From contig MNCI01003167.1 of the NCBI GenBank assembly GCA_015680685.1, positions 69,867-133,866 of the forward strand: 64,000 nucleotides of DNA, read 5' to 3'. The notes below the pieces were generated by a model that was not told the DNA's origin, searched no databases, and saw nothing but the letters and a program-made list of their open reading frames with translations. Position 1 is the first letter of the stretch, and every line of letters begins with the position of its first letter. This DNA is from Gnetum montanum. Its lineage: Eukaryota; Plantae; Gnetophyta. Below, piece by piece: positions 5,625 through 56,284 of this stretch. The translations under genes were made by a program, and so were the position numbers.

Positions 5625-6004
5625 TTAAAAAAAATCATATGATAGTGTTTCTTAATGTAATCAGATGTTTATTTATAATTTTATCCTTTGTCTAACAATA
5701 ATACTCTTGATTTGAAGACTCTAAGGTATGGGCTTAAGTGATTAAATTTGAAGAATAAATACATATGAGGGTTAGGATTTGACTTAGGATTTGTTTTTCA
5801 AAATTAATCATTACATGATATGATTTTTTTTATATATAGAATAGATGCATAGGAATTAATGCATACCACTTGTAAGTTACAATACTTCTTAATTTCTAGA
5901 AAAGTTCCATTTTGAATGTATTTGTCTAGAGGGTATAATCATCTAATTTTTGTCCAATAACTACATCCCTTTCCTCCTCTTGAATTTATGCTTTATCTAG
6001 AAAT

Positions 6005-6024
6005 TATATATATATATATATATA
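6005..6024. repeat. (TA)10 microsatellite
   Basis: Read directly from the sequence. Confidence 0.95.
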
Positions 6025-7981: not shown

Positions 7982-8799
7982 TCTAAGTATTATAGAAATG
8001 TAAATATATTCTATCTCATGGAAATAAGCATTTGTTCCAAGTTTTTTGTACACATCCTAAGTTAATGAAACTATTACTAGGATTACCAAGAAACTTTACG
8101 ATTAAGAAAATCAAGAAAAATCAATACTAGACTACAAAATAATTACACTTTATGCTCAAAACCAATGATACTTATTCCACCTTACTAGTAAGAATTAGAA
8201 TAGTAAATGACTTAGTAAAAGTGAACATTTTGAAAAAGTAAATCTATGCTAATTGATATGCTACAATGATGATGAACAATCTCGATCTTTATTTTCATTC
8301 ATAAATTATGTTCAAGAAAAATTCACTTGAACAAATATTTCATACAATTATAATTCACCACATTATGAGCATTCACTCTAACTCTAACTCTTTGAACATA
8401 AACTACAAGAATTTCATTAAGCATTGGGAAAAACGTGTTTATGATGCAATGGTGGATTGGCATTTATAGGCATGATCATGATCCACTACATCATATCTAT
8501 AATGACATATGTAAAGCTATGATATCATAACTATAATATCATATTTGTTAATATATAATGTTTCATTACAAACAAAAAGAGGATAGAATTCCTTACAAAA
8601 TTATGGTTTTAATAGGCTTCAACATTATGATACATATATACATGACTAACTCTACTATGAAGGTTGCATCATGGTTTAAGTGGTGTTATAGAATTATCAT
8701 GCAATTCATGATTGACACATATGACAAACTCAAAATAAAACAAAACATAACAAAAGTAAGCTCAATGTAGTTGTATTTAAGTTCTAGGTTTTGGTGGTT

Positions 8800-11524
8800 T
8801 CTCCATCAGATTCTTTTCCTTATCATCTAGCTTGTAAATTTGGTATCTACTTATCAACACTTTGAACTTCTCTTCCTCTGATCTAGGGTCATGTACCATC
8901 CATGCAAATTCAAAAAATTTAGTTATAGTTGGTACTTTTCAATGACATGGTAGTTGTGGAAACATCTTATTAGAATTGATGTAGCATGCTACAAATTATA
9001 TTCTTTCTTTCTTAAAAGATTTGGACACTTTTTCTTAAGTCTTGATAATATGTCATTCTTTTGGCCAAATTTGTCACTACATCTTTTTGGTCCTAGTAGC
9101 TAGTTTTAACGACTTGTAGTTTGGAGTTTTCTATGTGATATGTTTATTATGCATCTTTTCTATCTACAAACTTCTTTTCATACATTGAGTATACTATAGC
9201 TAGTTGCTACTCTAGTTTTGTTTTTGATCTAACTACTATCAACATGACCAAGTTAGAATATATGAGATTTTCTATCCTCATGTATTCTATTAAGTCCTCA
9301 TTCTGTAGGTCTTTATTCTTTATCATGACTTGATAAATGTGGGCAAGGTTGTCCAAGATGAATTTCCAATCAAGTGTCTATTCTCTTATGGAACTATTTT
9401 TGGCTTTGGCCATTTGGATTTCCTTCTTATTGATTTGCTTATACATACCTAATTAATCTTTGAAGTGGCTTTTCAACATTTCATGCTTCTTGGCCTTGTT
9501 TTCCCATGCACTAATTTCTATTATATTATGGGTACTTCTTCCATTGATAATATTTTATTTTCTTGGGCTAATTATCTTATGTTGATGTTAACTCTGGTGA
9601 ATTGCTCTCTCAATTGATTAATTCTTTCTTCTAGTATATGTTTTTGCTTCTCAATATTCATCAACTTCATATTTTCTATAGTAAAATTCTTATTCTCTTC
9701 TTCTAATGAAACAATGATCTTGGCATGTCTGTACATTTGGGCATTTGCTAGTGAAGAATTTTACATTGCCTTCTCTTTTCTATCTCCATTTTTTTTTTGT
9801 TCATCATTTGGCCAATCTATTCATCTCTAAATTATGCAAGCTTGTCAAGTGTAATGTGTCATGTAGGATCTTTTCTTTTATCTCTCAGTGTAGCTAATTC
9901 TTCCTATAACCTCTACTCTTCACTCTCAATGTATTGCATCTTGGTTTCAACAATGATTAATTTTCCTTTTGTTGAGATCAAATCAAACTAGACTAGGGAT
10001 ATCAAAAATATTTTGCATTCATTTTCCTTCTATAGTAATCTCTCTAATACATCTTCGCTCTCTATAAGGATCATTGATATCTCTGTTAAGGTTTCCATAT
10101 CTTTGGTTCCAATAATATCAATTAGTGGCATAATAGGAACATTAAAGAATTCCTTAATATGATCCATTATAATTTTCGTTACTCCTACTACACCTTGATG
10201 TTGCATCATCATAACTATGGCTCCTTCTCCTATTTCTAATATTACTTATAAGGATGCAATGTTTCTTGAGATTTGCTATGCCCAATTGTCATCATCTCTT
10301 TCCTACAAAGAGACTTGAATAATTGCAATTCTTGTGGATATGGTATGTCTATTGGTATTATTCCTAAATCTGTACATGCTTGAGCCCTTCCTGCTACCAT
10401 AATTTATTATTTCATCTATCTACTATAGCTGGCTCATTGAGGATCTATACTCTTTTTTCATTGGTGGAGCACTTTGTCCTAGTTATTATATAGCTAAAAA
10501 TTAATCCACTAGGTCCTACTTCTTCTATTCCTATAGCTAAAATTTTTTCCACTAGTGTGTATCTTGTTGCAACTTTAATTTCTATTGGTTTTTCAAATTG
10601 ATCTTTCTTGGGTGGCACTAGCTTAAAGATTTCAGCATATGATGCATTTTGAGCCTTGTGAAAGACTTCATTAGTGTAGACCAAAATTCTAACTTATTAA
10701 CATAATTTTCTGATAAGACAAGAGAATGGTAGAGTGGGTTTCCTTATCTTCTTCTCCTCAAATATTTTCTATATTTCTAAAAATATTAAATGAGTGATGC
10801 TAGCTTGGAATTTCCCCATCAAAATAACACTTTCTCTACTAATATATATAGAGATCTGATTAAGTCTCTTTTTTAAGAATATGTGATATGTCCCATTCTT
10901 GAAATAAATCTTCTCAATAGTAGATAATCCACTATACTCCTTTTTAATGTTTCCATAAGCCCTTTGCAGTCATCGATTCCTTACATCTATGTTAGATCTT
11001 GTTGATATTTGAGCAATGTTAGCCCTAACATTTGGAATATTAAATACATTTACAATTGCTTTTACAAAGTATGGCACTATGATTTCCTTAAATTTCATCA
11101 TGGCATCATCTTATTTATTTTTTCAAAATTGTTAAACTTCTCCCAAGTGTCATTTTCCACTCCTTGAGATGGTGGGACATAAGGAAGAGGCTTGAAGTTG
11201 CAAAAAAATATCCATAGGTGTAAACTCCATGAAGGATCCAAAATTTAGTTCCACTATGACAATGGACATATTGGACTTCTTCTAAATTGCTAATAGACAC
11301 TTATTGAAGAGCATAAGGTGTTCTTCTTATTTTGGATCTAGCATTACATTAGCTTCTACCTTTGTAGATTACCATCTCAAAACTGTAAGTTGATGGATGA
11401 TATATGAGTATGCTTCTTACTCCATAGGAGGAGTTTGTTCTATGCCTTATCCTATGCCTCTTCCTCTAAGTCTTTTCCTCCTTGGTTGTGATGGTTCTCT
11501 AGCTTCAGGTCTCTTTAGTGGCAT
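8800..11524 (-). pseudogene. Athila env-like / extra ORF remnant
   Basis: ATG at 11524 preceded by tgtag; basic N-terminus; KPTLPFSCLIRKLC matches LPFPWLIKKLC at ~63400; many stops; 3' end approximate. Confidence 0.6.
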
Positions 11525-14500
11525 CTACAATCATGAAGAGGTTTTAAGATTACCCAATCATTTTAGAAAAATTTCTAATGGCTCATAACCATTCATTTAA
11601 TTTTGGATTTTCATCAAAATCTTTATTCATTATCAACTATATTTTCAATTTGGCTTTTAGAGTTAGAAATTTTTTTTATTTAATCCTTTGTATGAAAAAT
11701 CTTAATGGAATATTTTATAGCAATTAGAAGAAAATTTATCTTAAAAAATTATCACAATCTTTGATTTATCATTTAAAGCATATGTGAATGCTCATTTGTA
11801 AAGAAACATTAAGTTTATTAGCTATATTGGATCAAAATGTAATTATCATTTATTGTTCTTACTCTTACTTTATTTTTCTAGGTGTAAGAAAAATTTAGTG
11901 TAATTTACAAAAACTATATACAATGCTCTCTTCCACAACTATGTTGATCACTCCATGAGTAAAAGGATTTAAGAATGACTCAAATGGGATGTGTGGTGAG
12001 GAAGATATGGAGCTCTAAAGTTGGAAGTCAAAATAATAACATGAACTTCATATGTGTGAAATGAGAAAATGAAAAAATATTCTAACAGTCTATGCATCTA
12101 TATATTGATTTTATAAGTATGATATTATAGATGCAACATTGTTGATGCAATATCATAGAAGCTCATATATCATATCTACAATATTATTATTGGAATTTTC
12201 AAAATTTTTGTGACATTTGATGAAAGATGGACAAAATTGATAGTATGGAAGGTGTGAGGATGATCCAAAGGATTCTTGATCATAGATTATGCTTACAATA
12301 TAATAATTTGTTATTAAAGATATGTAAAAGAAAGATTTTAAGCAAGATAAGTTAATTAAGCTTTTAGGATCTGGTTGATCGAAATAGTCTCATGAATAAA
12401 TATGAACATGTAATAAAATAGCAATAATTTCCTAAGAATTTAAGAGGTATAAGATGATGTGGAATTGGTCATCAAGTATGAAACACAAGATTTATACAAG
12501 TGGATCCTCCTCAAAGCAAACTCCTACCATTAATGTTCTTGTATAAGCACACTTACAAGTATTCGTGAGCACTCAAATAGTTGAATGTAAATCATACCTA
12601 TCTTCCAAAGCACAGTTGTTAATATTGTTCCAATAAGAAAATAATACTATATAATCTAGAATCAGAAAAAGAAAATTATTTATAATCGTGTGGTAAAATG
12701 CTAGTAGCATGGATTGTAGAAAATGGAACATGGTATATCTTACCATAGGAATAATGAATTCTATGAGTAATTCATGGTTAAAATAATCATTAGCTTTTCT
12801 ATCTAAGATTCAAACCAAGTTGATAATACTTACCAGTGATATCATATTTCATTAACCCAAAACTAACAATCATAAGACTATCATGATTACAGGAAATATT
12901 ATTACTTGGAAATGAAGTACTAGGAAGCCTTTTATTAACCACATAGTTTATTTTAAAGGAGCCTTAGCCATTGGATAGAGGAGTGTCTTCAAGCATGAGT
13001 AACATTTCTTTCTAGCCCCATAACTAATGCAAGTCTAAGAAACCTTAAAATCTCTAAGAAGTTACCTACTTTCAAGGATGGGTAATATGTCTTTTTAGTG
13101 GAATCCCAAAAACTTTTTTTAATATGTATTTATTATGTTATTACTATGTCAACCTTACTAGAGGACCACCTTCAGGCATGGGTAACATCTCTCTAGTGAC
13201 ATGGTAAGATAACACTTATTTTAGAATACACTTTCATTTTTCATTAGAAGTCAAGTAAATAATATACCTTAATAACATAACAAGAATGATAGTAGTAGCT
13301 TTAGAGAATCCACGAATCCCCTTGGTGTAAACCCTTTTCATTCTCACTTGATTATTTACTTTTACATCTAGGCATAATGATTATAAGTTGATTTTACTTT
13401 TATTATGAAAAAATGTCATTATTTTCATAGTAAGAACCTCTTATTATTGAAAATGAGTGGATGAATGATGTGTCCATACTATATATACCATTAGCTCTTA
13501 AATGATTTTACAACATATGATAAAATTCTTGTTGTTTCAACTACATCTTGTTTATTCTTATATAGTTTATTAGGAAGATCAATAAAAATATACACATAAG
13601 AAATAGTAAAAATATAAAAGAATAAGAAATAGATAACAGTATAAAAATGTATTAAGAATTTGAAAGATATTAAATAATAAAAATAATAACATGTAAAAAA
13701 TATAAAAGAATAGGAAAGATATTCAATAATGCAAAAAATCATTAAAATTAGGAAACATATGACAAAAATTATATATAAAAAAAAACAAGTTAAAATTCAC
13801 TTACCAATTCATATTAAAGATAGGATACCTTTCTCAAAATTGAACTAAGGAGCAAGTATTCAAAAAATAAACTAAACATCCCTAGGATCATACACTCTAG
13901 GTTTCTTTTTTATCATCCTTAATGATTTATGCTTTTGTTTATTATCCCATGTGACATTGATAATAATCAAATTTTAATCATTTGAAAACACATATCTTGT
14001 TGGACTGGATGATACTCTTATTTTAGAGGATCTAGATATGTTTTCTTGTTTATTCTTGATTTCAAATTTTGAGTCTTCATAATTACTACTTGTTAGTGGT
14101 GTATGGTCATGATTTAGGATATCCTTTTGTATGTTATCAATTTGGATCATTTTCTTGGGGTAGGAGTTAATAACTAAGTTGGATGTTTCCATGCATGTAT
14201 TGGATAGTTTTATCTTTTCATTTCTTAACCACTATATGTCTTTTGGTTTCATGGACATATCCATTTTTTTTTTTGATCTTTTTCTTTTTGCATGCATACT
14301 TGTTTTTCAAATTTGTTGTGGGTTGAAGTAAAGAACATGTTAAAATTATAAACTTTTGATCCACAACTACATCCTTCTTGATTGTAAGTAATTCATGGAA
14401 TTCTTTGCATTTGTATGGATCCATGCTTATCTTCCTTGGAAATTTTCAAGAACAAGTCTCTCATTCCTAGCTTATCATCAATTGTACTAAGCCATGCTCA

Positions 14501-15376
14501 CTTCATAATGTTAAAAAAAGTCCAAGTTATCATTCTTCACATCGATCACCAAAATATCTATTAGATAATATCACCCATTAATAGTGATTAGCACATCTTC
14601 TATCTATCCCAAAAAATTGATGGTTTATTAGTGTACAAGCTCTAGTCTTATGTTGCACATCTGTAATGCCAATAGGTTTTCATGCCTTGTATGTTTCTTG
14701 ACATATCAAGTTAACACTAGAACATGAGTCTAGTAGAGATTTTCATGGTTAATTTTTAGCAATTTGTAAATAAATGAGAGGATTTCTAGAATCTATTCTT
14801 TTCTTAGGAAGAGTTCCTACTTTTATCCAATCTAATATTGTATTAGTTAACACGATAGTTTTAATCTTCTAGTTTTGTTATTGTGGAAGCATGTTAGTTG
14901 TAGGAGGATTTATCATAGGAGGAACATCATGCTTCTCCTAGTATAATTGGTGATGGTACTAGTAGTAAAGAATTGAGACGTTAATAAGAGTAAAGATGAG
15001 GATCCATACATGAGGTTATGGATCTATGGTATTCAAGTGGATAGTAACAAGAGAAAGTATGTATAAAAGTATTTCTAGGAGAGATAGAACATTGTACATA
15101 GTATTCATAGGATTCATTTATCTATATGGATATTTTGCATTAGCAGTGACATTCCCGATGATTGTGCTTGTTGCCATTCCTACTAATATTATTCCTATGA
15201 TTTAGGATAAATCATGCTTGGATAGTTTAGTTGTTGGTAGGACTATATAAAATTACCTTGTGGATAAGATAATCACCTAGGCATTTGTATTGGTACCTTC
15301 TTTGGACTACCACTTTTCTTATTGTTTTCCTATCATAAAAAAAGGATAGTGGATAAAAGACTCTAGTTAGAGCCAA

Positions 15377-16523
15377 TGTTCTTTCCTCCTTCTTACAATG
15401 ATAATCACAAGTATGAGGGTTCTTTCAAAAGTCAAGTTCAGGTTTTCATTGCTCTCTAGAAACACCAAGACCTAGATAGATCCAAATCAACTTAGCAGTT
15501 ATAGAGAAACTATCTAATTTGGATTAACATAATCTCTAAATTTCATAATATTTCATATTGAGAGTTGAATATATAATCAAACTTTTATGAAAATATTTAA
15601 CAATATTTACTCTATTTTATAAGTAAACAAAATTTCTTACTATATCAAAGTCACTTAGTCTATATAGTCTGAATTATATGCTACCTATGTAATCTAGCCT
15701 TTCATTTAATGCTTAAGTGCAATTTAACAAAATCTACTACCAATTTTTCCTAAAGAGAGAAAACCATGAAAAAATGAAAGCAGAGTAAGATTTGCTAATT
15801 TGTAGAATAAAGTAGTAAAACTACATGAAGCCTTAAACATTGAAAAGGAGCTACTATTGACAAGAGAACACATTTGGAAAATGAAGCTATTCAAATAAGT
15901 CAATAATACCAAAAATTGCTAAACCCTTAGCTATTCAAGTAATTAAACAATTCTAGGAATGAGATATCATGCATAATACTATGTTAACCACTAGCTCAAC
16001 AACTATGATAAAGAAAACAAAATCTGAAAAACTCAAAGGATAAAAGTAAATTATCTGAATCAAGTGTGAAATTATAATGCCATTGTATAGGAAATTTCCT
16101 CTAGATTTGTCTTCTACCTTTCTCCTAATAGTCCTTAACAAAGCTACTCTAGGTTTTATATAGTAGCTTCTAGTAGTTACAGCCATTATAGAAATTAAAA
16201 GCTATAGTTGTCTCACATTTTTTTCTACATAATTTCAATGTGTTGAATAACTATTCTATTGATAAATTTTCTTTATTCTTCAAATTTGAAGCACCTCAAC
16301 TGGTAACTATTATGATTTAGGAGAGCTCTTATTATCCTAACTCATTATATTTAGTTGAGATTAATTAAGACTCTTTAAGACTTATTTGGTGCTTGTTTCT
16401 CCTAAACCTATTCAGTTAGAGAATTTGTTATTTCCATGCGAGTAACTTCTTGCACTAGCTCAAACTTTCAATTCAAGCTTCTCATTGGTAGTTTCATTTA
16501 AGAGCTCAATAACTACCATTACA
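15377..16523 (-). repeat. LTR of the Tat-like family
   Basis: Colinear with 56285-57210; minus-strand termini tgtaatgg...gaaca; TATA at ~16155-16163. The right boundary is inferred from similarity to the tgtatgg start at 3526. Confidence 0.75.
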
Positions 16524-17079
16524 TACCTAAATAATCTTGTTTGTTCTAAGATAATGGTCTTCTCTTAACTCTAACTAACTTAATCATTCTCAGAACTTTC
16601 TATGCATCTGCATGAATATGGCTCATTTTCCCATGATAATCCTATGCTCTAGTAAAATTTCTATGCTAATCTTTAGCTCTGTTCTTATTCTTGGCTTTGT
16701 GACTTCAAATTCATCCCCTATTCTTTAGCTTGCTTATAGATGAGTTGTTTGACTTGATTCTTATATTGACCTATTAATTTAAAGCTTAAGGATTTAATTA
16801 CTATAGATTTTTTTTGGTGTTGACATTAGCTTATGAAGCACTTTATAAATTCATTTTCAAGAAGTTGATGTGGCAATGGTAGTTTGCAAAGGTGAGCTTT
16901 CTTGTAGAACTCTTATGGAGCTTGTTTTCAAAAGGGATTTTCAAGACTCTTCGAAGACCTAACATTTTGACCTTTTTGTGTGCTCAATGTTAAATATATG
17001 TGGCTTGTAAAATCACTTTTAAATATTTTCATAGATCTAAATTTTAACTTCATGAACTGGTTCTATAGGCTTATGTGAT

Positions 17080-17625
17080 AAATGCTGAAATGGCATGTGA
17101 AGTTTTTCATTTATCACAAGCCTAAGAATCTTCATCTAGAGGCTGGCATGATAGATTTTGATGTGGTAGATGAAGTATTTTGTTTATTATGAGCTTTAGA
17201 ATATTCATCTAGATGCTGGTATGATAGATCCTAACATGGCAAATGAAGTTTTTCATTTTTTATAAACTTGAGAATCCTCATCTAGATGTTGATGCGGCAT
17301 ATGAAATTTTTCACTTGTCACAAGCTTGAGAATCTTCATCTAGATGCTAACATAGCAAATGTTGATGCGATAGATGAAGTTGTTTATTTTTCATGAACTT
17401 GAGAATCTTTATCTAGATAATGATATGATAGAAGAATTTTTTCTCCTTTTCATGAACTTGAAAATCTACATCTAGATGATGATGTGGTAGTTGAAGGTTT
17501 TAATTTGTTACAAGATTGAGAATCTTTATCTAGATGCTAACATGGTAGATTTTGACATGATAGATGAAGTTTCGCATTTTTTATAAACTTGAGAATCTTC
17601 ATCTGGAGGCTGACATGGTAGATGG
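17080..17625. repeat. Tandem array of 58/59- and 73-bp units (partial copy at 27649-27935)
   Basis: tctaga core at 17135, 17208, 17281, 17339, 17412, 17471, 17529 and 17602 (tctgga). Confidence 0.9.
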
Positions 17626-18900
17626 ATTTAGTACTTTTCTCTTCTTCCTCTAGAAGGAATTTCATGGCTCATCTACTTGCTAAGTTGGAAATTCTTAAGA
17701 CTTAAATCATTTCTTTAAACAATTTCTAACCCTTCAATGAATAAGCTCAAAATTTTTACAATTCTTTAGCATAAACTTAAGCTAGATATTTTATTACTAA
17801 ACAACATTTTCTAGCTCTCTTTATCATCCTCAAAATTTTTCTTTTATATCTAAATATATGATCTAACCTCTACTATAAATAAGCTTGAATTTGAAGAAAA
17901 AGCTAATATCTATTAGGCTTATTTATGTTTATCTATTTGCAATTCTTAAAAATACCATTTTAATAAATTGTCAGTGCTACCCCTTTTTAGCTTACAATCT
18001 AAATGAATGAGAATGTGTATCTATAATTGAATTTTAATATTTTAATAGCTCATTCATGGCTTAAATAAACTAGGCTTTGAAAAATGAACTTTAAATCAAA
18101 GCTATGTTTGTTTTTGCTCAAAATCTATAAAGCTTCAAAGCCTTCTAGAAGTTCATGAATCGAGCTTAGAAATTGATCATCAATATGAATTTAATCTTTA
18201 ATATTGCTATTTCAAAAATAATGACTAAAACTCTAAGAGTCAAAATTGAAAGGTTTTAGTAATTAATCTTTTTATCTTTCCTCATTTCAAAACCTTCTTT
18301 CTTTCTTTGAAAATTTGAGGAATACTAGAATTTATCTATGCTCAAAAGCTTACGATGCTTCATAAATAAAATGACTCCATATTCTTTAGCATGATCTCTT
18401 TTATACCTCTAATATTATACTTAATGGTTTATAGAGAACTTTATATTTTTTAGGATTTAGAATAGAGGAGCACTTTATTAAACCAATATCCTTTTAGTAA
18501 ATTCAATATTGCTCTATGTATGATCAAAATGTAATAAAATTTCTTACCATCATTTTTTCCTTTAAAGATCAATATGCTAAGCTCTTAGAATAGCAAGATT
18601 TCACTCATTCTTATGAACCAATACCCAATGACATTTTTTATGGGATATACACAATAATGACTAAAAATCCTTCTAAAATTTGTACAAGGTAACTTGAATA
18701 AATTGTAGACTAAGCTTTAAAATGTAAATCCTTTTTGGGGAAAATTCCTATCAAGCTTAAGACTTATAAGTATAAAGGCCCCATGTGGCCTAAATGCTAT
18801 GCAAAATAGATACATATGACTACCTAACTTTAGCTACTTGAAACTAGTTAAGTGGTAGAGGGAAAACATTCACCATGACCTTTCTTAGGATCTTCCTTTT

Positions 18901-21900
18901 TGATGAGTGGTGAGGTACCCCTACACTCAACCATACGAAACGAGCGTAGCATGCACGATCCGCTCGAACTCCACAGACTAAATGCCTAAATGCCACAAGG
19001 AACGCTTGGGGTTAATCGTTCATTGTCTTCCCAGGATTGCTTGTATGTGTCACGGTATATGGTTAAGCAAGTCTGAGGTATATGCTTTTTTTGGTTTTTT
19101 TTGGTTTATCTCCTAATCTATGAGGGTGAATGGTTGAGAAACTAACTAACTCTAACTACAACACTAAGTCCTAGCGTCAACATCCATTCCCACTTATCGT
19201 ACACACCTTGAACTGTGCAACTGTGGCTACCAAATGCTAATTGTTACTAGGATCACCACACGTAATGCACGTGCTTGAAGCGGTCATACTGAGGAACTTA
19301 ACTAACCTAAGTGTGACAAGTAGCTGATTCCTTGACTAGCCATACACATCCGTAGATGCTCATAATCAAGTCGTACTTGTCCCACGTTCTAGGAGGAAAG
19401 GGTTGAGAGAATCTACTCGCGATGAGTAGCTGATTCCTTGGCTAGCCGTACACGTTCATCAACGCTCATAACCAAGTCATACTCATGTTGCATTACTAGG
19501 AAAGTAGTAAATAACATTAATTAAACCTATCCATGCACTGCAAGGTTTATCCACAAAGTTATTCATATTATCGTACACAACTTGCGTTCAGGTACAAAGC
19601 TGCTCGAATAAAGAACCGTTCACTTGGGGGACTCCTACTGCGGGCGCATGGAAAATATTCTATCTCTGGGGTGATCAATCCGCCAGAGCTTCGCTACTTT
19701 ACGCCTAGGATGAGAAATGAGGGGAGTGTCGCCTCTTATTTATAGATNNNNNNNNNNNNNNNNNNNNNNNNNNNNNNNNNNNNNNNNNNNNNNNNNNNNN
19801 NNNNNNAGCTGAGAGAAAAGGGGAGAGAGAATAGAAGAGAAGAAGAGAGAAGAGTCTTGCTGCTGCCAATGCCTAGATTGCATCTTCCATTATCCATCCG
19901 TAAGCGCATTATCCATTCTACTCCTTGCATAGCTGCCTCAGCGCTGCTCCATTCCAAGTGTTTGCTCTAGATCCATTCCGTTGTTGTATGATTACCATCT
20001 GCACACACAACACAATCATATATTAGCAAGGGTAATTGAATCATCAAGTAAATAATACCTTGCTTCGGTGTAGGTTCATTTGCTAGGTTGTGGTATGGCT
20101 GATATGGATCTGGGAAAATGTAGATGATGACTACCGAAGGTGTAGGGGTTAAGAAGAAAAACGAAAAAATCCGGGGCTTAGGAGAAAAATAAAAAATGAA
20201 CCTCTGATAGCATTAGAATGGAGAAAGAAAAGGAGTAAGGAAGATAGGTAAAAAGGGACAACTATGGCATCAGTGAAGTGGATGTCAAGATGAAAATGAA
20301 CAAAACTAAAATTAATTGCAAAATCTTAAGGAAAAGAAGTTAACTGATATTCCAAATAGGAGTGTCAGTGGGTCCTCCCCAAAGCAGGCTCATGCCCTTT
20401 AATGCCCTGACAAACCCACATTCAAAGAGTTCGTAGGCTCTGGAAATTTCCTTTGGAACAAGAGCTAAAGTCTTAACCGCTAGAGTTTACCAAAAAGAAA
20501 AAAATGCATCGACCAAAATATATGCACTAATGATACATCCAGCAATGAGGTGAATAGCAGAGAGAAGGATGGAAAGAAGAGGATGGAATGGAAACCCAAG
20601 GACAAGGTGGTGTACAACCCCTTGTGTGTTTTATGATTAATGCGACTTGGCGAATCTCATTCCAACTCTAGCTCAAACCAACCACTTCTAGTGACTGCAC
20701 ATCAATGCATCCAGTTAAACCATCCACTTGGATAACAAGGATGCATCTTCAAAGAGCCACCACCATTCTGATGAAACAAGGAGAGAATGGGATGCGAGAA
20801 GGCCTTAGTTAGAGGGAACACTTTGGTTCCATAACCAGTGCGTGCAGCCCAAATTTTATTTCGTCTAAGGGGTGTGCTTTGAATCCTCACTTTGGGGTTT
20901 TTTGTTTTTTTTTTTTTTTGTGTTTTGTGTTTTTATGNNNNNNCCTTGAGTCCTTCCTTAGTTTGAGAAATGCCTAGTCACCGGTTCGTTAAAGTTCTTA
21001 TTCGAAGGGAACTGTACATTTCCAAGCCAAGAGAAACCATAGATTTTGATGGATGGATGGATGAAGTGATCTCATTGCCTATCATATCAAAAGAAACATA
21101 CCTTAGTATCAACAATGTAACTTAAAGGTAAAAACCAACGTTAGTAATCAATATGAAAACAGTTCATACCATCAGTTTGAACACTTATTTGGTGATGAAC
21201 TTACATGGTGGATGACACACATACAAAAAATAGAAAAGTATAATGATGGTGTAAACAAAAACAAGAAAAGATAAAGAAAGTTGTAAAACAAAAAGTATAA
21301 AAGTTAAAGAAATTTGTAAAACAAAAACGTGTAAGACAAAAACGTTGTAAAAAAAAATGTGTAAAACAAAAAACTTAAAAGAACTGAGGGCCCCATATGG
21401 TTAGCATAGGTGGCCATCTCCCCCATGACTGAGTTGTAAGGGAGAGATCTCAGTAATGAACGTTTGTTTAAATTTCTTAGAAGTGCCCAACTTCTCCCAA
21501 TTGATGATCTTAGATTCAGGGGTGGAAGTTGGCGATGCTCATGTTCCAATGCGTCTATGCCACGGTTGTTGGCATGAGTTTTCTCAGTTCGTTCCATGTA
21601 TATTTTTTTGCTCCCATGAGTAGCTATCATCCACGGGGTGTCTACTACTTCTTGTGTGGTTGCTACATACAGGCATTTTTGTTGCACAGGTTCTTGGGCA
21701 CACCTGTTACATGGAGACATTTCCTCCATGTCATCACCCGATGAATCACTATATGTGATGCATGGAACTATCCTCTTCTCGATCTTTCCACATATGTTTA
21801 TCTTAGAGATTTCCAAGGAAAGATCACAGATCCTAAGGCATGCATCTACTGTGCTTAGCCATGCCCTTCCAATTATAATTGGGAAGTCCCCTTCGTTGTT

Positions 21901-23106
21901 GTTCACTTCAATCACCAGAAAGTTAGCTGGGTAGGACCAACCACACACAGTGGTAATAACATCCTCCACCAATCCTAAGGTAATGGTGATGGATTGGTCT
22001 ACCAGATCCAGTTGGATGTTGCTCTTCTTAAGTTGTGGTAGGTTCCAGGTGTGATACATCTTTTGCGAAATTAAGTTGACTCCGGAACATGAGTCAAGAA
22101 GAGCTCGATGTGATGCATTTTCAGTGATCTACAAATAAATAAAGGGACTCCTAGGGTCAGTTAGTTTCCTGGGAAGGTGGCCTACCTTGATCCAGTTAGT
22201 TACAGTATGTGTTAACATAACTGTATGCGTTACACTCCTTTGGACTGAAGGGTTCTCCGAAGCATTAGTGGTTAGAGGCCTATACATGTACCCGTCCGCT
22301 TGTTGTTGCGAGAGTTTGTCTGGGCTCCTAGTCCTAAAAAGAGGTCTCTTCTTTGTACATTTGTCACAAGAACTAGTTTCTGGTTGGATATTTACATGCT
22401 AAATATTTACATCTCTCGCGGCGTTACGTTGCTGCGGTTGGGTAGGCAATTCCCCTTGCATTGTTGGAACAGGTTGTATGGGAACTACTAGAGGAAGAGG
22501 TGCGGGTGGAGTTAGAGGACGGACGGAATGTGAGATGTCTCCCAGAGGAGAAGGAGTCCTTCTGAAGTACTCCCACGCTTGGTAGTGACGTTGGGGGGTA
22601 GTGTGACCCATAGAGTCACCTGGAGAAACCGGTTGCTACACATAATAAACATAAGGATCAGGCTATCGGTAAGGGTATTGATGTGTTGGTGGTGGCATCC
22701 CCCATGACTGTGGGTATTGCCACTACTGGTGTTGTTCAATGGGCTATGGAGGCATTCCACTTGGATAATATGTTAAGGGCTGGTGGAACTGCCTTGGGTT
22801 ACCATGTGGGTAAGGTAACCTTCAAGGTGTTTGACGTTGATTAAGTCTTGGATTTAATGAATACACCCCAGACTCCTACAGATGTGAGATACAAAGCTGC
22901 TCGAATAAAGAACCGTTCACTTGGGGGACTCCTACTGCGGGCACATGGAAAATATTCTATCTCTAGGGTGATCAATCCACCAGAGCTTCGCTACTTTATG
23001 CCTAGGATGAGAAATGAGGGGAGTGCTACCTCTTATTTATAGATATGGCGGTGGACCATGATATCGCTTACGTGATATCGTGGCTTGTGCAATCTGTGTC
23101 TCATCA
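18901..23106 (-). mobile_element. Non-autonomous Athila-like LTR element with perfect 5-bp TSD CTTTT; 3' LTR 18901-~19808, 5' LTR truncated to 22890-23106
   Basis: ctttt|TGATGA...TCATCA|ctttt; empty site at 29200-29204; 19592-19747 matches 22890-23045. Confidence 0.93.
21304..22200 (-). pseudogene. Athila-type aspartic protease at the end of gag-PR
   Basis: KLTDPRSPFI...ALLDSCSGVNLI...LDLVDQSIT..LGLVEDV...PANFLVIE...PIIIGRAWL. Confidence 0.85.
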
Positions 23107-24004
23107 CTTTTGAAAGCTCCATCGTACTCAATCTCGACTAAGATCTCAAATTTCTTTTCAATTTCTTAATTTAGATACTTTTTATTTTCTTGATTCGAAG
23201 TCTTCTCCTTAACTATAGTGATTCTACTACTTTCACCAACTGACTCTTTTCTAAACTATCCAATGAAGATCTCCCTCTCCTTTCCTTCAAATTAATGTAA
23301 ATGTGAGCTAGGTCCTCGACTATTCTATTAGCTTAGTAAGTTAGTGTCTTATGAGATGAAGACTTCTTTTCATGAATCTGAATTGTTTAGATTCTCTTCA
23401 TTTCTATCTAGCCTTGTGATTTCTGAACACTTATAGGAATCATCTCAAACATGAGCATGAATACCGTTTTGAGGGGGTGCCTCCACGCTCTGCTACTCCA
23501 TGTCTTGTAGCAAAATCTAGAGCTTAGCATGAAACAAACTCGATTGATCAAATTTAAAATGTCCAATGGCTTGGCATGATCTACTAGACTCTTTGGTTGA
23601 TTGCATCGCACAATGTTTCTATAGATCTCAAATTATCTCAGCGCTCTTCACTCAATGGCACTTTTCCACGAAGGAGATTCTATAAACAAAGGAATTCCTT
23701 CCAACCTAGACCCTGGAGGCATGATTAAAGCCAGCAAAAAATTTAAAAGAAACTCGTGTTTGTTACACCTAATCAAGACACAGTGATAAGGGACCACAGA
23801 ACGCGTAGATTACGAAGGAGATAAAATAAGAGCAAAATTTTGATGAGCAACAGATAGCAAAGCAACAACATAATATATATTCTTGGCATTAAACATAGAG
23901 TACACTCACAAACTTGTAGACTTTCTGGACTTAGATCACTTACTCTTTGCTACTCTCTTCTTCTCTTCTTTCTTCTGGGATCTCTTGTTCTTCTTCTCTA
24001 GACA

Positions 24005-24125
24005 CACACCCTATATATAGGATTTGGAGGCTAGTGGCTTCCATTACATGCTTTATTCCCTTAATCTTATCTTTTCCAGATAAGAGAGGATAACTTAGAC
24101 CTTATCAGCAAAGGAGTAGGTGTAC
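24005..24125 (-). promoter_or_regulatory. Putative viral pregenomic-RNA promoter
   Basis: cctatatataggg (TATA at 24012-24019) just after the last ORF; GATAAG motifs upstream; purine-rich leader downstream. Confidence 0.6.
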
Positions 24126-24134
24126 AAGCCATGC

Positions 24135-24754
24135 CTAAATAACTTTCAAGATTGCTCGATGAACTAAGAAAATTTTTCCACCTGCACAACTACAATCAAA
24201 GCATTCTTTGATAAGCTTTGAGAGTTTGGTAAGGATTCTTGCTAGAGTAGATGACATGTCTTCAGGCTCTGGTTGAGATGGTGGCTTTGGCATCATGCGT
24301 TTGTTTTCGTACCACGTAAGCTTTTGGAACATATTGATGCACTGGAAGGATGAGCATAACGTTTCTTCCCATGCTAGAGAATGTAGAATTGTAGACAGAT
24401 AAGCTCTGGAATTTTCATTAGCAAAAAGATGCCTATGGATCAAAATTAAATTATCTAAGACTTCAGATATGGTTATGTGCTGCAAAATATTTGCTTCAAG
24501 TCAACTCCATCGTAGATTGTTGACAATGCAATCGATTCTTCCTACCATATTGATGAAGAAATATATAGTTCAATATTATTTAGAAAGACACATTGAGGAC
24601 TCTTGTGGGAACATTTTTGTTATCTATTGGCATCATCTGACGTGATCTTCAAGAGTGTGTATAGGCCATGCTTTCCATTCTTCAGTATCTTGCAACAAAT
24701 TCTACGAAATGCTACTAAATATCGACTGTAACATGTTGGCATGAGGCTTTAATT
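24135..24754 (-). pseudogene. ~200-codon region in frame with the end of RNase H (Pol extension or separate downstream ORF)
   Basis: The RH IPG codon at 24797 is in the same frame as ORF 24135-24485 (offset 312). Confidence 0.55.
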
Positions 24755-26100
24755 CTTAGGTTAAAGAATTTGGAAGGCTATTTGTTACTCCTGGAATTCA
24801 ATTGAAAATTTATACTAAGCAAGTAGAAATTGCCACCATGCAAACCTTTGCAACTTTGGTGATGGAGTGATTCTTATCTTCAAAAGGGTTGCCAAATTGG
24901 AGGAATCGGTTCTCAGAATGAATGGCTCAGTATTCAAATGAATGTGAAATTTTTCTAATCCATGAATTGCTGCTAAAATTTCTCTTTCTGCTAGCCAATA
25001 ATTTAACTCATGCTTTTGAAAAATACCTGAGGCATAAACACAAACTTATTTAGTTTCTCTTGAATTTCTAGTTCTAAGAAGAATAGTTTCCCATGCATGA
25101 TAACTTCCATCTATGTTAAGAATAAAGGGACCTTGTAGGATTGGATTTAGTAGGGGCAAAGTCTTACACTCCTTTGTCAAATTCTAAACTTGCCTTGTTG
25201 CTTCAACTATCCATTGGAAAGGTTGTTGATTCTTACACCATTTGATTTCTTTTGTTTTATCATAGAACTTGGTAATATGCTTTGAAACATAGTTAACACA
25301 ACCAAGAAATCTGAGACACTGATCTTTAGTAGCCAACTGATCAGGAAAATGAGCTATCTTTTGCAATACATGTTTTTGCATGAAGATTTTTCAATCTTGA
25401 ATTTTGACACCAAGAAATTCAATTTCTTACTTTCCAATATAAATTTTTTTTGAATCTTTTAAAAGACTGATGCTGTGTTACTCTCATAATTCTACAAAAA
25501 TCTTTAAATGTGCTACATGTTCTATTGCTGAGTCAAAATATATAACAAAATCATCAATATAATTTGCAATAAAACTTTGATGCTTGCTGAAAATCGAATC
25601 CATTCCTCTCTAGAATTGAGCTAGGGCATTCTTCAATTCAAATGGCATTACAGTCCATTCAAATAAACCTTGTGGAGTGCTAAAAGATATTTTTTGTATA
25701 TCTTCTTCAGTGATTTTGATCTAGTGATAACTGCTTTTGCAATGAAACTTGTTGAAAATATTTTTTGTTGCTACTTTCTAGATTACTGCTTCCTTGTTAG
25801 GAAGAGGCCACTTGACTTCAATCATGACTACATTTAACGAGATGTAATTAATCATCATTCTGGCTTTTCCTCTTTTCAATTTAGCATGATTTCGAATAAT
25901 GAAACTTGCACTTGCATAATTGGATTGTGAAGGGCTGATTAACCCTTTGGATAAATATTCTAAAACTTTCTTCTCCATTTATTCTACATCTTGTTCGTTT
26001 AACACAATTAGCTTTGATTGAACCGGAATGTTATGTACTATTGGAATATGAGCCTCTAGACTATCCTTATCCTAAAAATCAAGGGGATGTTCACAACAAC
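24755..26100 (-). pseudogene. Caulimovirid reverse transcriptase-RNase H
   Basis: GLISPSQS..ASFIIRNH..KRGKARMMINY; FNKFHCKSSY; [15 protein letters not shown]; NYIDD; RFLGCVNY; RH: IDGS..AW, YASG, EREILA, LRTDS, RFARWQ, IPG..N.LPN.LT. Confidence 0.93.
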
Positions 26101-26313
26101 ATCGCTGCAATGCTTCAAAAAAACTGCTTAGCATTCTATCATCTTCATTTTTTAGATCAAATTGTGCTTTCTTCAACTGTTAAATCCTAGCATACTTCTA
26201 TTTTGCTAGATCTTTTAATTCATACTTTGTAAGCACATGTTTTAACGAAGGATTTTTCTATTGAAATTTTGTCTGATCTACTCATGTTTATTCCTTTGAA
26301 GCTAGGCAGGAAT

Positions 26314-26720
26314 TCAACTAAGAATTATTTTTGGTCTGACATTGGGCTTTGGTGAAGAATAGACAATCATTTCTAAACCAACTATATATGGACCTATGCT
26401 ATCCATGAAATGTGCTCCTAACCCAATATCAAATCCACTATCATATATTTGAACAAAATTTGTATTTCCCACGTACTCATCATTAAAAGAAATTGGCACA
26501 TCAAATGCAAAATGCGATAGCTGTCTAACCCCATTCATTGTTTCTAATGTGATAGGCTCATGAGTCACCCATGTTTCTAACACATCTTTGTGACAAAAAT
26601 TCAATGTCACTCCTATATCTATGAATTCTTGATACTTTTAACATTTATCTTTATCATCTACTACTATTTTTATTGGTACTAATAACAAACTATGCAAGGA
26701 TAGTAAATGCTTAATTTAGT
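26314..26720 (-). pseudogene. Caulimovirid aspartic protease
   Basis: LLVPIKI...QEFIDIGVTLN (D[T/S]G degenerate)...FDIGLGAHF. Confidence 0.75.
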
Positions 26721-26776
26721 GAAGTTTGGATCTACCTTTGATTTCTTACTTGTTGCATACTTTACTTTAGCTGAGA

Positions 26777-27648
26777 CTAGAAATCGTCTTTGATGAGTGA
26801 TAAAAAATTTGGCACTTTCTGTGTAATTTTCACTAGAAGTTCTTCTTCTTCATCTGACTCATTTCTAGAATTTTCATTTGGCAAGGTTTCTCTATATCCT
26901 AGAGTTGAAGAGATACTTGAATCTTGATCACCAAACAAATCTTTAGATTTCATATTGGGCATTTCAAAATCATCACCTAAGGTTGACCACATCTCTTCTT
27001 CATTGAGCTACTGTTGAACTTCAGTTAAATCTTCTAAAGATATGTCTGTAAACCATTCCATGTCATCTCTTGGCTGCATCATATTGCTCTTGAAATGTTC
27101 AGCTTCAACTTCTTCAACTTCTGATAGTTCACTTTCAGCTTCACTACTTTCTGTTTCTTCACTTTTATCAGCATCAGATAATACTTGAATAACATACACA
27201 TTTTCTGTAGAGTCTTCTACTTTTGGATCTTGGACTAGTTCCCAATCTTCGATGTATTCTTCAAAAAATGCTTTAATCCTTGAGTCACCTTTATTCTTTG
27301 GACATCCATGAGCATAATGTCCCTGGTTCTTACATGAAAAGAAGGTAACTTTCTTTCTGGAAAATGGACCTTTTCTTCGCTTAACAAAAATCTGCTTCCA
27401 ACTAGGCTTGAAGGATGAATGCCATTTGTGGCGTGAGAACCATGGCTATCTAGACTTTCTAAAATGCTTGGTTAGTATCCTTTTTGGTCATTGTGAGGAA
27501 GCTTAAGGAGCTTTTCCAAATACATCTACACCATCAAGATTTGCACACACTTCTACAAAACGAAGTAAGTTTTGCAACTAAACATGATAACATGCAAACT
27601 GTAATTCTTGTCTTACCATGTGAACTATATCAGCAACATATGATAATG
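26777..27648 (-). pseudogene. Caulimovirid coat protein C-terminus: basic tract, CCHC knuckle, acidic tail
   Basis: Manual translation gives ...FVKRRKGPFSRKKVTFFSCKNQGHYAHGCPKNK (first Cys lost), then in-frame EETESSEAESELSEVEEVE. Confidence 0.8.
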
Positions 27649-29555
27649 CATCTAGATGCTAACATAGCAAATGTTGATGTGATAGATGAAGTTTTTTATT
27701 TTTCATGAACTTGAGAATCTTTATCTAGATACTAATATGATAGATGAATTTTTTCTCCTTTTCATGAACTTGAAAATCTACATCTAGATGATGATGTGGT
27801 AGTTGAAGTTTTTCATTTGTTACAAGATTGAGAATCTTTATCTAGATGCTAACATGGTAGATGCAAACATGATAAATGAAGTTTCAAATTTTTTATAAAC
27901 TTGAGAATCTTCATCTAGAGGCTAACATGGTAGATGGATTTAGTACTTTTTTCTTCTTTCTCTAGAAGGAATTTCATGGCTCATCTACTTGTTGAGTTGG
28001 AACTTCGTAAGACTTAAATCATTTCTTCAAACAATTTCTAACCCTTCAATGAATAATCTTAAAATTTTTACAATTCTTTAGCATAAACTTAAGCTAGATA
28101 TTTTATTACTAAACAACATTTTCTAGCTCTATTTATCATCCTCAAAATTTTTCTTTTAGATATAAAGTTATGATCTAACCTCTACTATAAATGAGCTTGA
28201 ATTTGAAGAAAAAGCTAACATCTATTAGGCTTCTTTCTCTTTATCTATTTGCAATTCTGTAAAATACCATTTTAATAAATTGCCAGTGCTACCCCTTTTT
28301 AGCTTACAATCTAAATGAATGAGAATTTGTATCTATAATTGAATTTTAATAGGTCATTCATGGCTTAAATAAACTAGGCTTTGAAAAATGAACTTTAAAT
28401 CAAAGATATTTTTGTTTCTGCTCAGAATCTATAAAGCTTCAAAGCCTTCTAAATGTTCACAAATCGAGCTTAGAAATTGATTTTCAATATGAATTTAATC
28501 TTTAATATTTCTATTTTCAAAATAATGACTAAAAATCTAAGATTCAAAATTAAAAGGTTTTAGTAATTAAGCTTTTTATCTTTCCTAATTTCAAAACCTT
28601 CTTTCTTTCTTTGAAAATTTGAGGAATACTAGAATTTATCTATGCTCAAAAGCTTACTATGCTTCATAAATAAAATGACTCCATATTCTTTAGCATGATC
28701 TCTTTTATACCTCTAATATTATACTTAATGGTTTATAGAGAACTTTATATTTTTTAGGATTTAGAATAGAGGAGCACTTTATTAAGCCAATATCCTTTAA
28801 GTAAATTCAATATTGCTCTATGTATGATCAAAATGTAAAAAAAAATCTTACCATCATTTTTTCCTTTAAAGATCAATATGCTAAGCTCTTCGAATAGCAA
28901 GATTTCACTCATTCCTATTAACCAATACCCAATGACATTTTTTTATGGATATACATAATAATGACTAAAAATCCTTCTAAAATTTGTACAAGGTAACTTG
29001 AATAAATTGTAGACTAAGCTTTAAAAAGTAAATCCTTTTTAGGGAAAATTCCTATCAAGCTTAATACTTAGAAGTATAAAGGCCCCCTGTAGCCTAAATT
29101 CTATGCCAAATATATACATATGACTACTTGACTTTAGCTACTTGAAACTAGTTAAGTGGTAGAGGGAAAATAGTCACCATGACCTTTCTTAGGATCTTCC
29201 TTTTGAAAGCTCCATCATACTCAATCTCAACTAAGATCTTGAATGTCTTTTCATTGTCTTAATTTAGATCCTTTTTATTTTCTTTATTCAGAGTCTTCTC
29301 CTTAACTATAGTGATTCTACTACTTTCACCAACTAACTCTTTTCCAAACTATCCAAATAAGATCTCCCTCTCCTTTCCTTCAAATTAATGTAAATGTGAG
29401 CTAGGTCCTCGACTCTTCTATTGGCTTAGTAGGTTAGTGTCTTATGAGATGAAGACTTATTTCCATGAATCTTAATTGTTTATATTCTCTTCATTGCTAT
29501 CTAGCCTTGTGATTTTTGAACACTTATAGGAATCATCCCAAACATGAGCATGAAT
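27649..29555 (+). repeat. Right copy (A') of the ~1.9-kb direct duplication
   Basis: Starts catctagatgctaac (=17337) and ends gagcatgaat (=23462); carries the empty Athila site. Confidence 0.95.
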
Positions 29556-29929
29556 GGAATGATCATTTTTCATAAAAGAAAATTCATCTACCAACCATGT
29601 CATATAGGGAATACTATATTAAGCCCCATAGCTTGAAGCTTTATGGTAGTCATTCATGACATGTTCAAAACAACATTTTGATAAATAAGGGATGAAAGGT
29701 CTTGTCTTTTCCATTTTCCTAAAAGTGATCTTAACTCAACATTTTATTAGCATGTAGAGGATCATTCATGCCTTATTATATAGCCCAAGTTCTTGAAAAT
29801 TTCCTTCCACTATAACAACTAGCTTAGATGCTTATTACAATTCCACTAAATTTATTTATTAACCTCAAAGAAAACCACTATTTCCATATTTACAACCTTC
29901 AATTTTTCATAGTTCTATCAAGTATTGGA

Positions 29930-30328
29930 TGACTGCCAAAATTAGTTCTTGAGATCGATGGCATTAAATAGGAACTTTAGTTTAGTTCCATCTATCATGG
30001 ATAGCTTATACATATTATCTAATACTTGTTTCTTAATAAAAAATGGGCATTTCCACTTGGTATAAAATTTGTTTTGATTTTTTCTTCTCATATTCAAAAG
30101 TAACACTAAGTCATCCACTCTAAATGTCCTTTTTAAACCACCTATTGATTTTCAATGCATTTATCAATAAACTATTTGTAGCTTTATCAATTTTATCTTT
30201 CATTTTAATATGTAGAGACATTAGGCTTCTATCTTTATCCATTATCTAGCTATACTTCTACACAAACTCTACTATTGATTTTATGATTTTGTTAGTAAGT
30301 CTTGCAACTATTCCATAAACTAGATTAT
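29930..30328 (-). pseudogene. Integrase C-terminus of the split Tat-like element
   Basis: YNLVYG...KFYTKWKCPFFI...YKLSMIDG..LKFLFNA, homologous to 671-982. Confidence 0.75.
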
Positions 30329-30333
30329 AGAGG

Positions 30334-31684
30334 TGTTAAGGTTTCTAAATGCATATATGATCTATCTATAAATCAATGTTGTTGCATCTAAAAATTTTGA
30401 TTGTTGAAAAAAGACCTAAAAATCCTAGTTGTGGAACAATTTTGACCTTGAATCTCAAGGGCCTCTGAGAAAGAGGATTCAAGGTATCATAGATGATCTA
30501 GCCAATCACCTAGGGACTTGAAGAATGTAAATAGAGGTAAAATATGAAAAAATAAATTACATATTTGAATGAAAATAAATTAATTAATTAAACTTGAAAT
30601 GAATTTTGCACAACAAGTGAACTATAAACTTTATTAAAACAGCAAGATGTCTAAAGTATAACACTCAAAAAAGTACAAATTCTATGCTCAAATGCACAAT
30701 AAGCTTGCTTGGATGGAGCTTGAAGAATGTTGGACCTAGCAAGTTGCATTCTGTAGTCAAACTCCATGATCTAGACACTTCCCAACTCTAATTGCTAAGA
30801 ACTCCTTGGTAATTTTAACTTGTATCTACAACTTTGGTTATCAATGATGTAAACAATGGTGCTTGACACTTGTTACATTGGTACTATGTTGAGTCTCTAA
30901 TGCTCAAGTAGATACTAATATGCTCCATAAGTTCCAAAAATGCCAAATATGTTCAGAATGCTTAAGTTTGCAAAAATGTTCAAAACCTGAATAATGTGTT
31001 CAAGTTTGGCTTTTATAGGCTCAAAGATTGTTGATTTTAGGTTACAAATTTCTATCATGATTGCTAATAGATTGGTATTGTTTGCAAGTGTAACATGTCA
31101 CAATTATCAATGTAGTTATTTATTTGTGGTAAGTTTTACCCAAGGGTCATCAAAACCACATCAAATATAAAAATAGTAAATGGGCTTTTGGTACTACACT
31201 AGCTTCACCTCAACTATGCTAGCCTTTGAGAGCTATTCTAGAATTGTTAAAATCTAATAGGAAATATGGTCACTACATTGGCCATGTGAAGATTTATAAG
31301 ACTCTGTAATGACTATGCTGGCCATGCTATAGATACTACTTGAAACTGTAATGACTATGCTGGGTATTGCTAGGAAAATAGAAAATCCAACAACTCCAAT
31401 GGTACTAAAGGTTATGATGACCATAAAACCCATGAAAATGAAAAATATGGGAGTCCTAAAGGAGTTTTTAGCCTTTCCAAGCCCAAATATAGATATGACC
31501 TTACTTTTTCCACTTGTGAAGTGAGGCAATAGCAACTTATAAGGCATTTTTCAGTCCCAAAAAGTTAAAGTATGTAAGATTCCAGCTCATGGACCACAAA
31601 CCTCATAATTATAATAAAATATTTCCTCAAGTTAAATGGTGAAGGTTAAAAATCACAACATGAATTTTCTTAGTGCATGTTTCA
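30334..31684 (-). repeat. 3' LTR of the Ogre-like element (shorter than the 5' copy)
   Basis: Colinear with 49750-51070; both end in gtttca on the + strand. Confidence 0.85.
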
Positions 31685-51070: not shown

Positions 51071-51075
51071 AGAGC

Positions 51076-56136: not shown

Positions 56137-56284
56137 GGAAAAGGTAGTAGTTTATTCTCTTCCACTTCTTCTAGTGTCAAAAAGAACTATTGATGCCTAC
56201 TTTGGACTATAACTATTTCCTTATCATTTTCCTATTAGCAAACCAAAAAAATGACAATAAATAAAAGGCTCTATTTAGCACCAA

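Follow-up and report, generated by a model that had tools for sequence, protein, structure and literature searches.

A caulimovirid fragment between two direct copies of a 1.9-kb host retrotransposon segment in Gnetum montanum

In a 64,000-nucleotide stretch of Gnetum montanum DNA (assembly GCA_015680685.1, contig MNCI01003167.1, positions 69,867 to 133,866; hereafter the window, in whose own coordinates all positions are given), we analyzed a decayed endogenous fragment of the Caulimoviridae that carries no integrase and lies between two direct copies, A and A', of a 1.9-kb host sequence. A sequence-only reading of the same DNA had proposed that the virus was captured as filler during repair of a break that re-copied its target. 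Capture as filler is also our best reading, and we assign a probability of about 0.55 to one repair or re-replication event having duplicated the target in tandem and placed viral filler at the breakpoint; that capture and duplication were one event is a likely rather than an established part of the proposal, since a two-step history gives the same sequence. The product is a dead fossil without function, best called a tandem duplication with viral filler. The features of the locus are the following.

17337-18900, plus strand: first part of A, the left copy of the duplicated target; 94.1% identical to 27649-29204 over 1564 columns (self-BLAST)
18901-23106, minus strand: younger long terminal repeat (LTR) retrotransposon, internally deleted, with a gag/protease-like remnant, TG...CA ends and a 5-bp target duplication
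23112-23462, plus strand: second part of A; in self-BLAST 23107-23462 matches 29200-29555 at 93.0% over 356 columns
23460-23466, minus strand: left junction, a primer-binding-site-like word straddling the virus/A join, with a GGTAT core at 23465-23461
23463-27648, minus strand: caulimovirid insert of ~4.2 kb, with a coat-protein end, A3 protease, reverse transcriptase (RT) and RNase H
23463-24134, minus strand: viral intergenic region, putative leader, with a TATA-like box at 24019 and a purine-rich tract
24135-24781, minus strand: viral stretch beyond RNase H, perhaps a decayed extension of the coding region or a second open reading frame (ORF), without family match
24782-26134, minus strand: viral RT and RNase H (Pfam RVT_1 and RT_RNaseH), 13 stops in 451 codons
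26230-26751, minus strand: viral aspartic protease (Peptidase_A3, 22.7 bits, cut-off 21.3)
26750-27648, minus strand: viral coat protein, C-terminal portion including a zinc knuckle, aligning with residues 733-848 of Welwitschia mirabilis virus 2 (WMV2; P0017)
27649-29555, plus strand: A', the right, uninterrupted copy

Self-BLAST together with global alignment confirmed the A-virus-A' arrangement, with the copies abutting the viral ends. In global alignment, the first part of A shows 84 substitutions relative to A' over 1556 columns, along with a single 8-bp indel (Kimura two-parameter distance, K2P, 0.056 +/- 0.012) and the second part differs from 29205-29555 by 25 substitutions in 351 columns (K2P 0.075 +/- 0.030), which gives 109 differing columns out of 1907 (5.7%), of which 46 are transitions and 63 transversions. 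These mismatches are evenly distributed (chi-square p=0.16), and gene conversion between the copies is not indicated by their spread. The homology ends at the viral ends: beyond 23462, A passes into virus and A' into host, and the sequence upstream of 27649 is virus, that upstream of 17337 a host tandem array. The description of the copies as near-identical and exactly abutting is refined in two respects: the copies are 94% identical, and the left junction is ambiguous by two to three bases apparently common to A and virus. Virus, A' and both junctions are free of N; the N runs within the locus (19748-19806 and 20938-20943) both fall in the LTR element that splits A. A six-frame search of the A' region returned no Pfam match. 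We also observed that the A/A' differences are transversion-rich (transition/transversion ratio 0.73, with 46 of the 109 being G/T or A/C), in contrast with the LTR pairs of the region, old and young alike; such richness is expected of DNA already depleted of CG and CWG sites.

The identification of A and A' as retrotransposon 3' sequence rather than LTRs, and of the duplication as local, is supported by their colinearity with the 3' region of a host Ty3/gypsy element. As judged from its sequence, this is one old minus-strand element with two LTRs, within whose 3' region both copies lie colinearly, and its parts are arranged as follows.

15282-16713, minus strand, edges approximate: host 3' LTR; 15288-16412 matches 56188-57207 at 77-79% (K2P 0.24)
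about 16714-16727: polypurine tract (PPT)-like purine stretch just before the host 3' LTR, then TG
17062-17629, no strand assigned: tandem array in the host 3' region, with 73/59/190-bp periods
29514-29717, minus strand: beginning of the host element's extra ORF, reading across the join between A' and the right flank
29930-30378, minus strand: C-terminal part of the host integrase (weak SH3_Tf2-1 match, E 0.1; tblastx match to 587-955)
30379-51075, minus strand: old nested LTR element or elements interrupting the host integrase, with the LTR pair 30379-31689/49751-51075 (K2P 0.236)
51071-57207, minus strand: 5' half of the host element, with 5' LTR remnant, gag, RT-RNase H and the N-terminal part of integrase

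The 5' half begins with the LTR remnant (57207-56188), followed by a primer-site-like word at 56179, which we take to resemble Tat/Ogre primer sites, by gag near 55700 and by RT-RNase H at 53371-51914; the gag, H2C2 and SH3 matches lie below the Pfam cut-offs. The nested region contains an RT at 35667-34549 and an rve match. For both old LTR pairs, host and nested, K2P is about 0.24, four times the A/A' value. That the 15288/56188 repeat might be gag rather than LTR was considered and rejected, since gag begins about 500 bases further on and the primer-site-like and PPT-like words flank the repeat.

The outer boundaries of the duplication both look ancestral. A begins inside the tandem array, at a 10-bp palindrome that recurs in several units, and the array continues to the left of 17337. 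On the right side, the extra ORF, for whose host copy no Pfam name was found, is 47% identical over 68 codons to a related element at 1337-1540 (tblastx). Since this shared ORF crosses 29555/29556, the right outer join appears ancestral, and together with the left outer join lying in a continuing array this leaves the A-to-virus and virus-to-A' joins as the only new ones. We therefore have direct, local copies between outer joins of ancestral appearance, as defines a tandem duplication. The related sequence at 1-1540 belongs to another Ty3/gypsy element, distantly related and plus-strand, that carries RNase H, the end of an integrase and, following it, the same short extra ORF.

The pararetroviral identity of the insert and its lack of an integrase, both part of the sequence-only reading, were borne out by profile matches, a full HMMER scan, a tree and the absence of any integrase match in the three minus frames. 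The scan, run against 1.84 billion representative proteins, returned the polyprotein of WMV2 (P0017) as best match (E 1.1e-101, 40% identity). In a quick maximum-likelihood tree of 49 rows, comprising the RT-RNase H of the insert and 48 of 172 fetched proteins (the 45 best by score and three named Ty3 outgroups), the insert was sister to WMV2 (Shimodaira-Hasegawa-like approximate likelihood ratio test, SH-aLRT, 99) inside a 40-row caulimovirid clade (SH-aLRT 100) and apart from Ty3/gypsy. Word-seeded protein searches with the insert yielded only Ty3/gypsy proteins at 26-32% identity (5 and 11 matches), and IMG/VR contained no relative. The protease lies in a frame different from those of the coat protein and RT. 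The virus is cut within the coat protein at 27648, downstream of the expected position of the movement protein, and nothing in the window matched the movement-protein-bearing N-terminus of WMV2 or of P0024. No Pfam match was obtained for 24135-24781, and the fold of the putative leader was not significant against shuffled sequences (z=+0.46). WMV2 falls in Caulimoviridae subclade B.1, which covers gymnosperms and early-branching angiosperms (PMC13308828).

The left viral end falls on the primer-binding-site-like word listed above. Seven of its 12 bases, five of them consecutive, match the consensus of the tRNA-Met primer site, and its GGTAT lies about 555 bases after the TATA-like box; an exact GGTAT occurs at one other place in the 4186 viral bases. 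The chance of such a word in a 7-base window at the junction ranges from 0.002 (exact) to 0.03 (one mismatch in six), for a test chosen after the junction had been seen. The primer-binding site is the usual opening point of caulimovirid DNA, and the viral DNA was probably opened at its minus-strand primer site before capture. Of the complete Flo-1 elements in almond, 77% are opened beside the Met-tRNA site (PMC13658181). The final two bases of GGTAT also belong to A, and distant viral copies in two of the sequencing runs searched (X6 and X7, see below) begin matching at 23460, which makes two to three bases of microhomology between A and virus likely at this join. The right viral end, in mid coat protein, meets A' at the 10-bp palindrome of the tandem array.

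Linear hepadnavirus DNA has been described as a substrate of end-joining (PMC2946954). For the present locus, a broken host end at 23462 would have been joined, via the two to three shared bases, to the primer-site end of a linear viral DNA, and copying or ligation would then have run 4.2 kb into the coat-protein gene. The other end would have been attached to host sequence within the tandem array, at 17337 of a sister or homologous template, with host synthesis resuming 1.9 kb upstream, whereby A was made twice; alternatively, this step would have involved nicks 1.9 kb apart. Decay would have followed, and later the insertion of the LTR element in A. We infer these four steps. The staggered break of the sequence-only reading is only one of the routes, as paired nicks and fork re-replication would both give the structure and fork re-replication would suit 1.9 kb at least as well. 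Recombination between A and A' could in principle remove the virus, and a single-A "empty" allele could arise secondarily in this manner.

The divergence of A and A', put forward as a clock for the integration, dates the duplication directly and dates the virus only if both arose in one event. Hence, we compared the stops in the viral frames with the numbers expected from half the A/A' distance. The RT-RNase H frame has 13 stops in 451 codons (2.6-4.3 expected) and the coat-protein frame 6 in 275 (1.9-3.5 expected); the count for the protease frame (6 in 160) was dropped, as the counted stretch runs past the frame switch. By class, we found nine TAG against 1.1-1.7 expected, seven TAA against 2.6-4.7 and three TGA against 0.9-1.3. 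The TAG class would be raised by methylated CAG sites in fresh DNA, and the observed/expected ratio of CWG is 0.84 in the viral DNA versus 0.14-0.22 in A/A'. Host-type integrases are more decayed than the virus, with 10 stops in 200 codons and 7 in 70. Viral decay thus falls below that of the host integrases and reaches at least the A/A' prediction, which points to a virus that arrived after the host element but not later than the duplication; a late-arriving virus is accordingly disfavored, and a single event and an integration that came first both remain. On these counts the virus may be of the same age as the duplication or somewhat older, and the A/A' clock is only approximate: it may underestimate, or the viral DNA may have decayed faster.

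A younger limit is given by the LTR element at 18901-23106, which is present in A, between CTTTT copies at 18896-18900 and 23107-23111, and absent from A'. Over 158 bp, its LTR remnants show eight transitions and not a single transversion, although an age equal to that of A/A' would predict 5.2 of the latter (P=0.005), and this transition-only pair makes the element younger than the duplication. The right-hand LTR is truncated at 22887, where gag-like sequence follows directly, so that the element appears internally deleted, and the element is extremely high-copy, with a summed contig depth of about 10^6 in all four runs compared below. Its internal region (21718-22853) resembles 14351-15307 in tblastx; the latter, immediately left of the host 3' LTR, is an older relative of this young LTR family.

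Read sets provided an additional line of evidence. Nine of the 12 listed runs, from three studies, contain part of 22900-29800; runs X10-X12 contain almost none of the searched words and are uninformative about absence. Runs X1, X5, X6 and X7 were compared over 21100-31500, all pieces being contigs and 75-89% of each run having been read, and the results below concern the 32 pieces listed (461,012 further pieces were unlisted). The low-divergence viral pieces, pooled, differ from the insert by 5/2387 in X1, 8/2600 in X5, 37/878 in X6 and 42/1288 in X7, after six viral pieces were left out as paralogues (34/235, 60/433, 19/266, 61/433, 32/549 and 45/294). The X6 and X7 pieces, at 3-4% from the insert, most likely share its insertion, and such closeness to a heavily decayed virus would place the insertion before those splits. 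In X5, which comes from another study and bears another organism label, a contig shows 24 differences from A' where A predicts 25, and it ends at 29204, the LTR insertion point. Other A-like copies differ from A' by 37/410, 32/364 and 50/344, where A over the same spans has 28, 21 and 19 differences, and among the pieces listed A is the closest copy of A'. One X6 record (22; eight differences where A predicts ten) was unassignable to A or A' and was not used for the viral-versus-host rate. The viral segment 23741-23815 is covered by one contig in X1, one in X5, three to four in X6 and two in X7. Many loci sharing the same junctions, the case that would have pointed to mobile cargo, were not seen in these runs; next to the left junction the locus looks single-copy in X1 and X5, with patchy coverage. 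A viral copy about 14% diverged covers 23460-23892 in X6 and X7, where X1 and X5 have their single contig at 23741-23815, and it is possible that related viral insertions differ in presence and absence among relatives.

Taken together, a single event is favored because the two new joins fall precisely where the duplicated unit ends and because both outer joins look ancestral within one colinear host element whose LTRs (K=0.24) are far older than A/A'. It is likewise favored by the position of the left viral end on the GGTAT word, by a virus not less decayed than the clock predicts, by the greater distance from A' of the other A-like copies listed and by the single contig at 23741-23815 in X1 and X5. 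Several points weigh against it. The stops in the two viral frames amount to 19 in 726 codons against 4.6-7.8 expected, an excess by which the virus could be older than the duplication. None of the 32 pieces spans a junction, and no empty single-A allele was seen in the read sets. The primer-site match extends to just seven of 12 bases of the consensus, and the leader has no significant fold. Tandem duplications make up only about 5% of rice insertions longer than 200 bp (bioRxiv 2020.08.26.268342), and no target duplications are given for Flo-1 boundaries in the available part of PMC13658181.

The excess of stops leads to the most serious competitor, which is nonetheless unlikely: two steps close in time, in which the virus was first joined at 23462 by end-joining at its primer-site end, and a break in the coat-protein gene was later repaired by a template switch to the array on the empty homologue, so that A' was re-copied and the rest of the virus dropped. 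Such a history accounts for a viral landmark at one end only, for viral decay ahead of the A/A' clock and for a re-entry point in the repeat array at the palindrome, at the cost of two rare events at one locus with the insertion still polymorphic. Most of the decay excess on which it draws lies in TAG and could stem from the methylation of newly inserted DNA; only transitions are seen in the young LTR pair.

Reversing the order, a longer tandem duplication would have come first and a late virus would have bridged a deletion of the old junction, A and A' being the leftover overlap and their divergence overstating the age of the virus. This is compatible with the sequence, and deletions at integration sites are known (PMC4241990); we nevertheless consider it very unlikely, since a younger virus should have fewer stops than the clock predicts and has more in every class, since the X6 and X7 pieces at 3-4% (37/878 and 42/1288) suggest an insertion before those splits, and since the virus would have had to strike, independently, a duplication junction that was already there.

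The further A-like copies at 9-15% from A', and the viral pieces at 6-7% and 14-15% in the reads, are what ectopic recombination would draw upon if a virus-A' (or A-virus) block had been imported from another copy of the family, making A and A' paralogues without a clock. We regard this as hardly probable: A is the closest copy to A' among the pieces listed, independent insertions of a family with LTRs at K=0.24 should be far more than 6% apart, and a single contig lies over the viral 3' end in X1 and X5.

An assembly artefact, with two haplotypes or loci stitched around the virus, might be suspected from the N gaps in the LTR insertion of A, from the start of A' in a tandem array and from the lack of a listed piece across a junction. 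It has very little probability left: the window and runs X1/X5 differ by 0.2-0.3%, far less than the 5.7% that separates A from A', and letters of both the A type and the A' type are present in the reads. Moreover, no N stands at the junctions, and the two parts of A are linked by the matching CTTTT copies and by their colinearity with A'. By analogy with the repeat-flanked endogenous pararetroviruses reported in grasses (bioRxiv 2025.06.08.658526), A and A' might be the terminal repeats of a mobile virus-retrotransposon chimera, an explanation of negligible probability and already largely excluded by the lack of TG...CA ends, of an outer short target duplication, of an integrase and of a multi-copy junction signal, and by repeats colinear with the host element on both sides. 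A target-site duplication made by an integrase or transposase was rejected on its size of 1.9 kb rather than a few bases and on the absence of an integrase match in the insert.

The remainder of the window is made up of further repeats. An AT-rich cluster of direct and inverted repeats at 4765-7982, with 24/25/49-bp tandem units, is foldback-like or resembles a miniature inverted-repeat transposable element. The segments 8199-14247 and 57248-63998 are inverted, very old copies (58-70% identical) of another LTR family, with a gag match at 58768-59229, and a perfect-looking 53-bp tandem pair at 57918-58022 has an N at its join (57970) and is likely an assembly overlap artefact. A search for tRNA genes in the window found none.

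The entry of integrase-free plant viruses into chromosomes has been described as largely uncharacterized (PMC13658181), and such insertions are hard to date because they lack LTRs. Here, a viral end at a probable primer site together with a doubled 1.9-kb target would tie the capture to repair synthesis or re-replication, and the locus carries its own approximate clock, bracketed by nested LTR pairs, an older one at K=0.24 and a younger one with transitions only. In the literature consulted we found no kilobase duplication of host target around an endogenous caulimovirid, although this novelty may be affected by what PMC4241990 and PMC13658181 show in their flank figures. The locus is apparently undescribed for the Caulimoviridae and a single accident built from known processes; as such it is a good worked example and not a new system, and it would matter more if such flanks were common. 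It seems quite unlikely that kilobase target duplications are a regular outcome when caulimovirid DNA, opened at its minus-strand primer gap, is captured at collapsed or re-replicating forks. If they were, such duplications would have escaped notice owing to their location in host repeats, and they would offer an LTR-like internal clock for endogenous pararetroviruses across giant plant genomes.

Among known systems, the florendoviruses (PMC4241990, PMC13658181) are alike in being integrase-free viral fragments in host repeats, proposed as filler at breaks, and Flo-1 (PMC13658181) may be alike in having one end next to the Met-tRNA primer site, as 77% of its complete elements do. The filler model of PMC4241990 goes with short gains or losses in empty-site comparisons. 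Florendoviruses show short gains or losses, TA repeats and, in the available parts of both papers, no target duplication in their flanks, whereas the present locus has a doubled target of 1.9 kb and lacks TA repeats beside the virus. WMV2 and subclade B.1 (bioRxiv 2022.02.23.481439; PMC13308828) have the same order of coat protein, protease, RT and RNase H. At about 40% identity WMV2 is of a different lineage, and the insert is partial and decayed, with a region after RNase H that is much shorter than that of WMV2 and has no match to its C-terminus. Tandem duplications made by repair in plants resemble the locus in being head-to-tail, local and without long homology; a patch-mediated model for them was reportedly developed by Vaughn and Bennetzen in 2014 and by Schiml in 2016. 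Perfect tandem duplications longer than 1 kb do occur, up to 4.9 kb (bioRxiv 2020.08.26.268342), yet most are below 200 bp and, as far as that source extends, they lack multi-kilobase foreign filler at the breakpoint. Foreign DNA at a breakpoint is found in the T-DNA and plastid filler of Arabidopsis (PMC8348815), including a 20-kb duplication with 652 bp of plastid DNA, and target-site duplications are mentioned there for T-DNA; those filler duplications are inverted and lab-induced, in contrast with the direct, natural and old one reported here. Finally, the Hvu-EPRV pararetroviruses of grasses (bioRxiv 2025.06.08.658526) are likewise integrase-free and lie between long direct repeats, of about 1.3 kb, but in the portion of that work available their repeats belong to the element, recur at many loci and come with no target-site duplication, whereas in Gnetum montanum the repeats are host target sequence at one locus.

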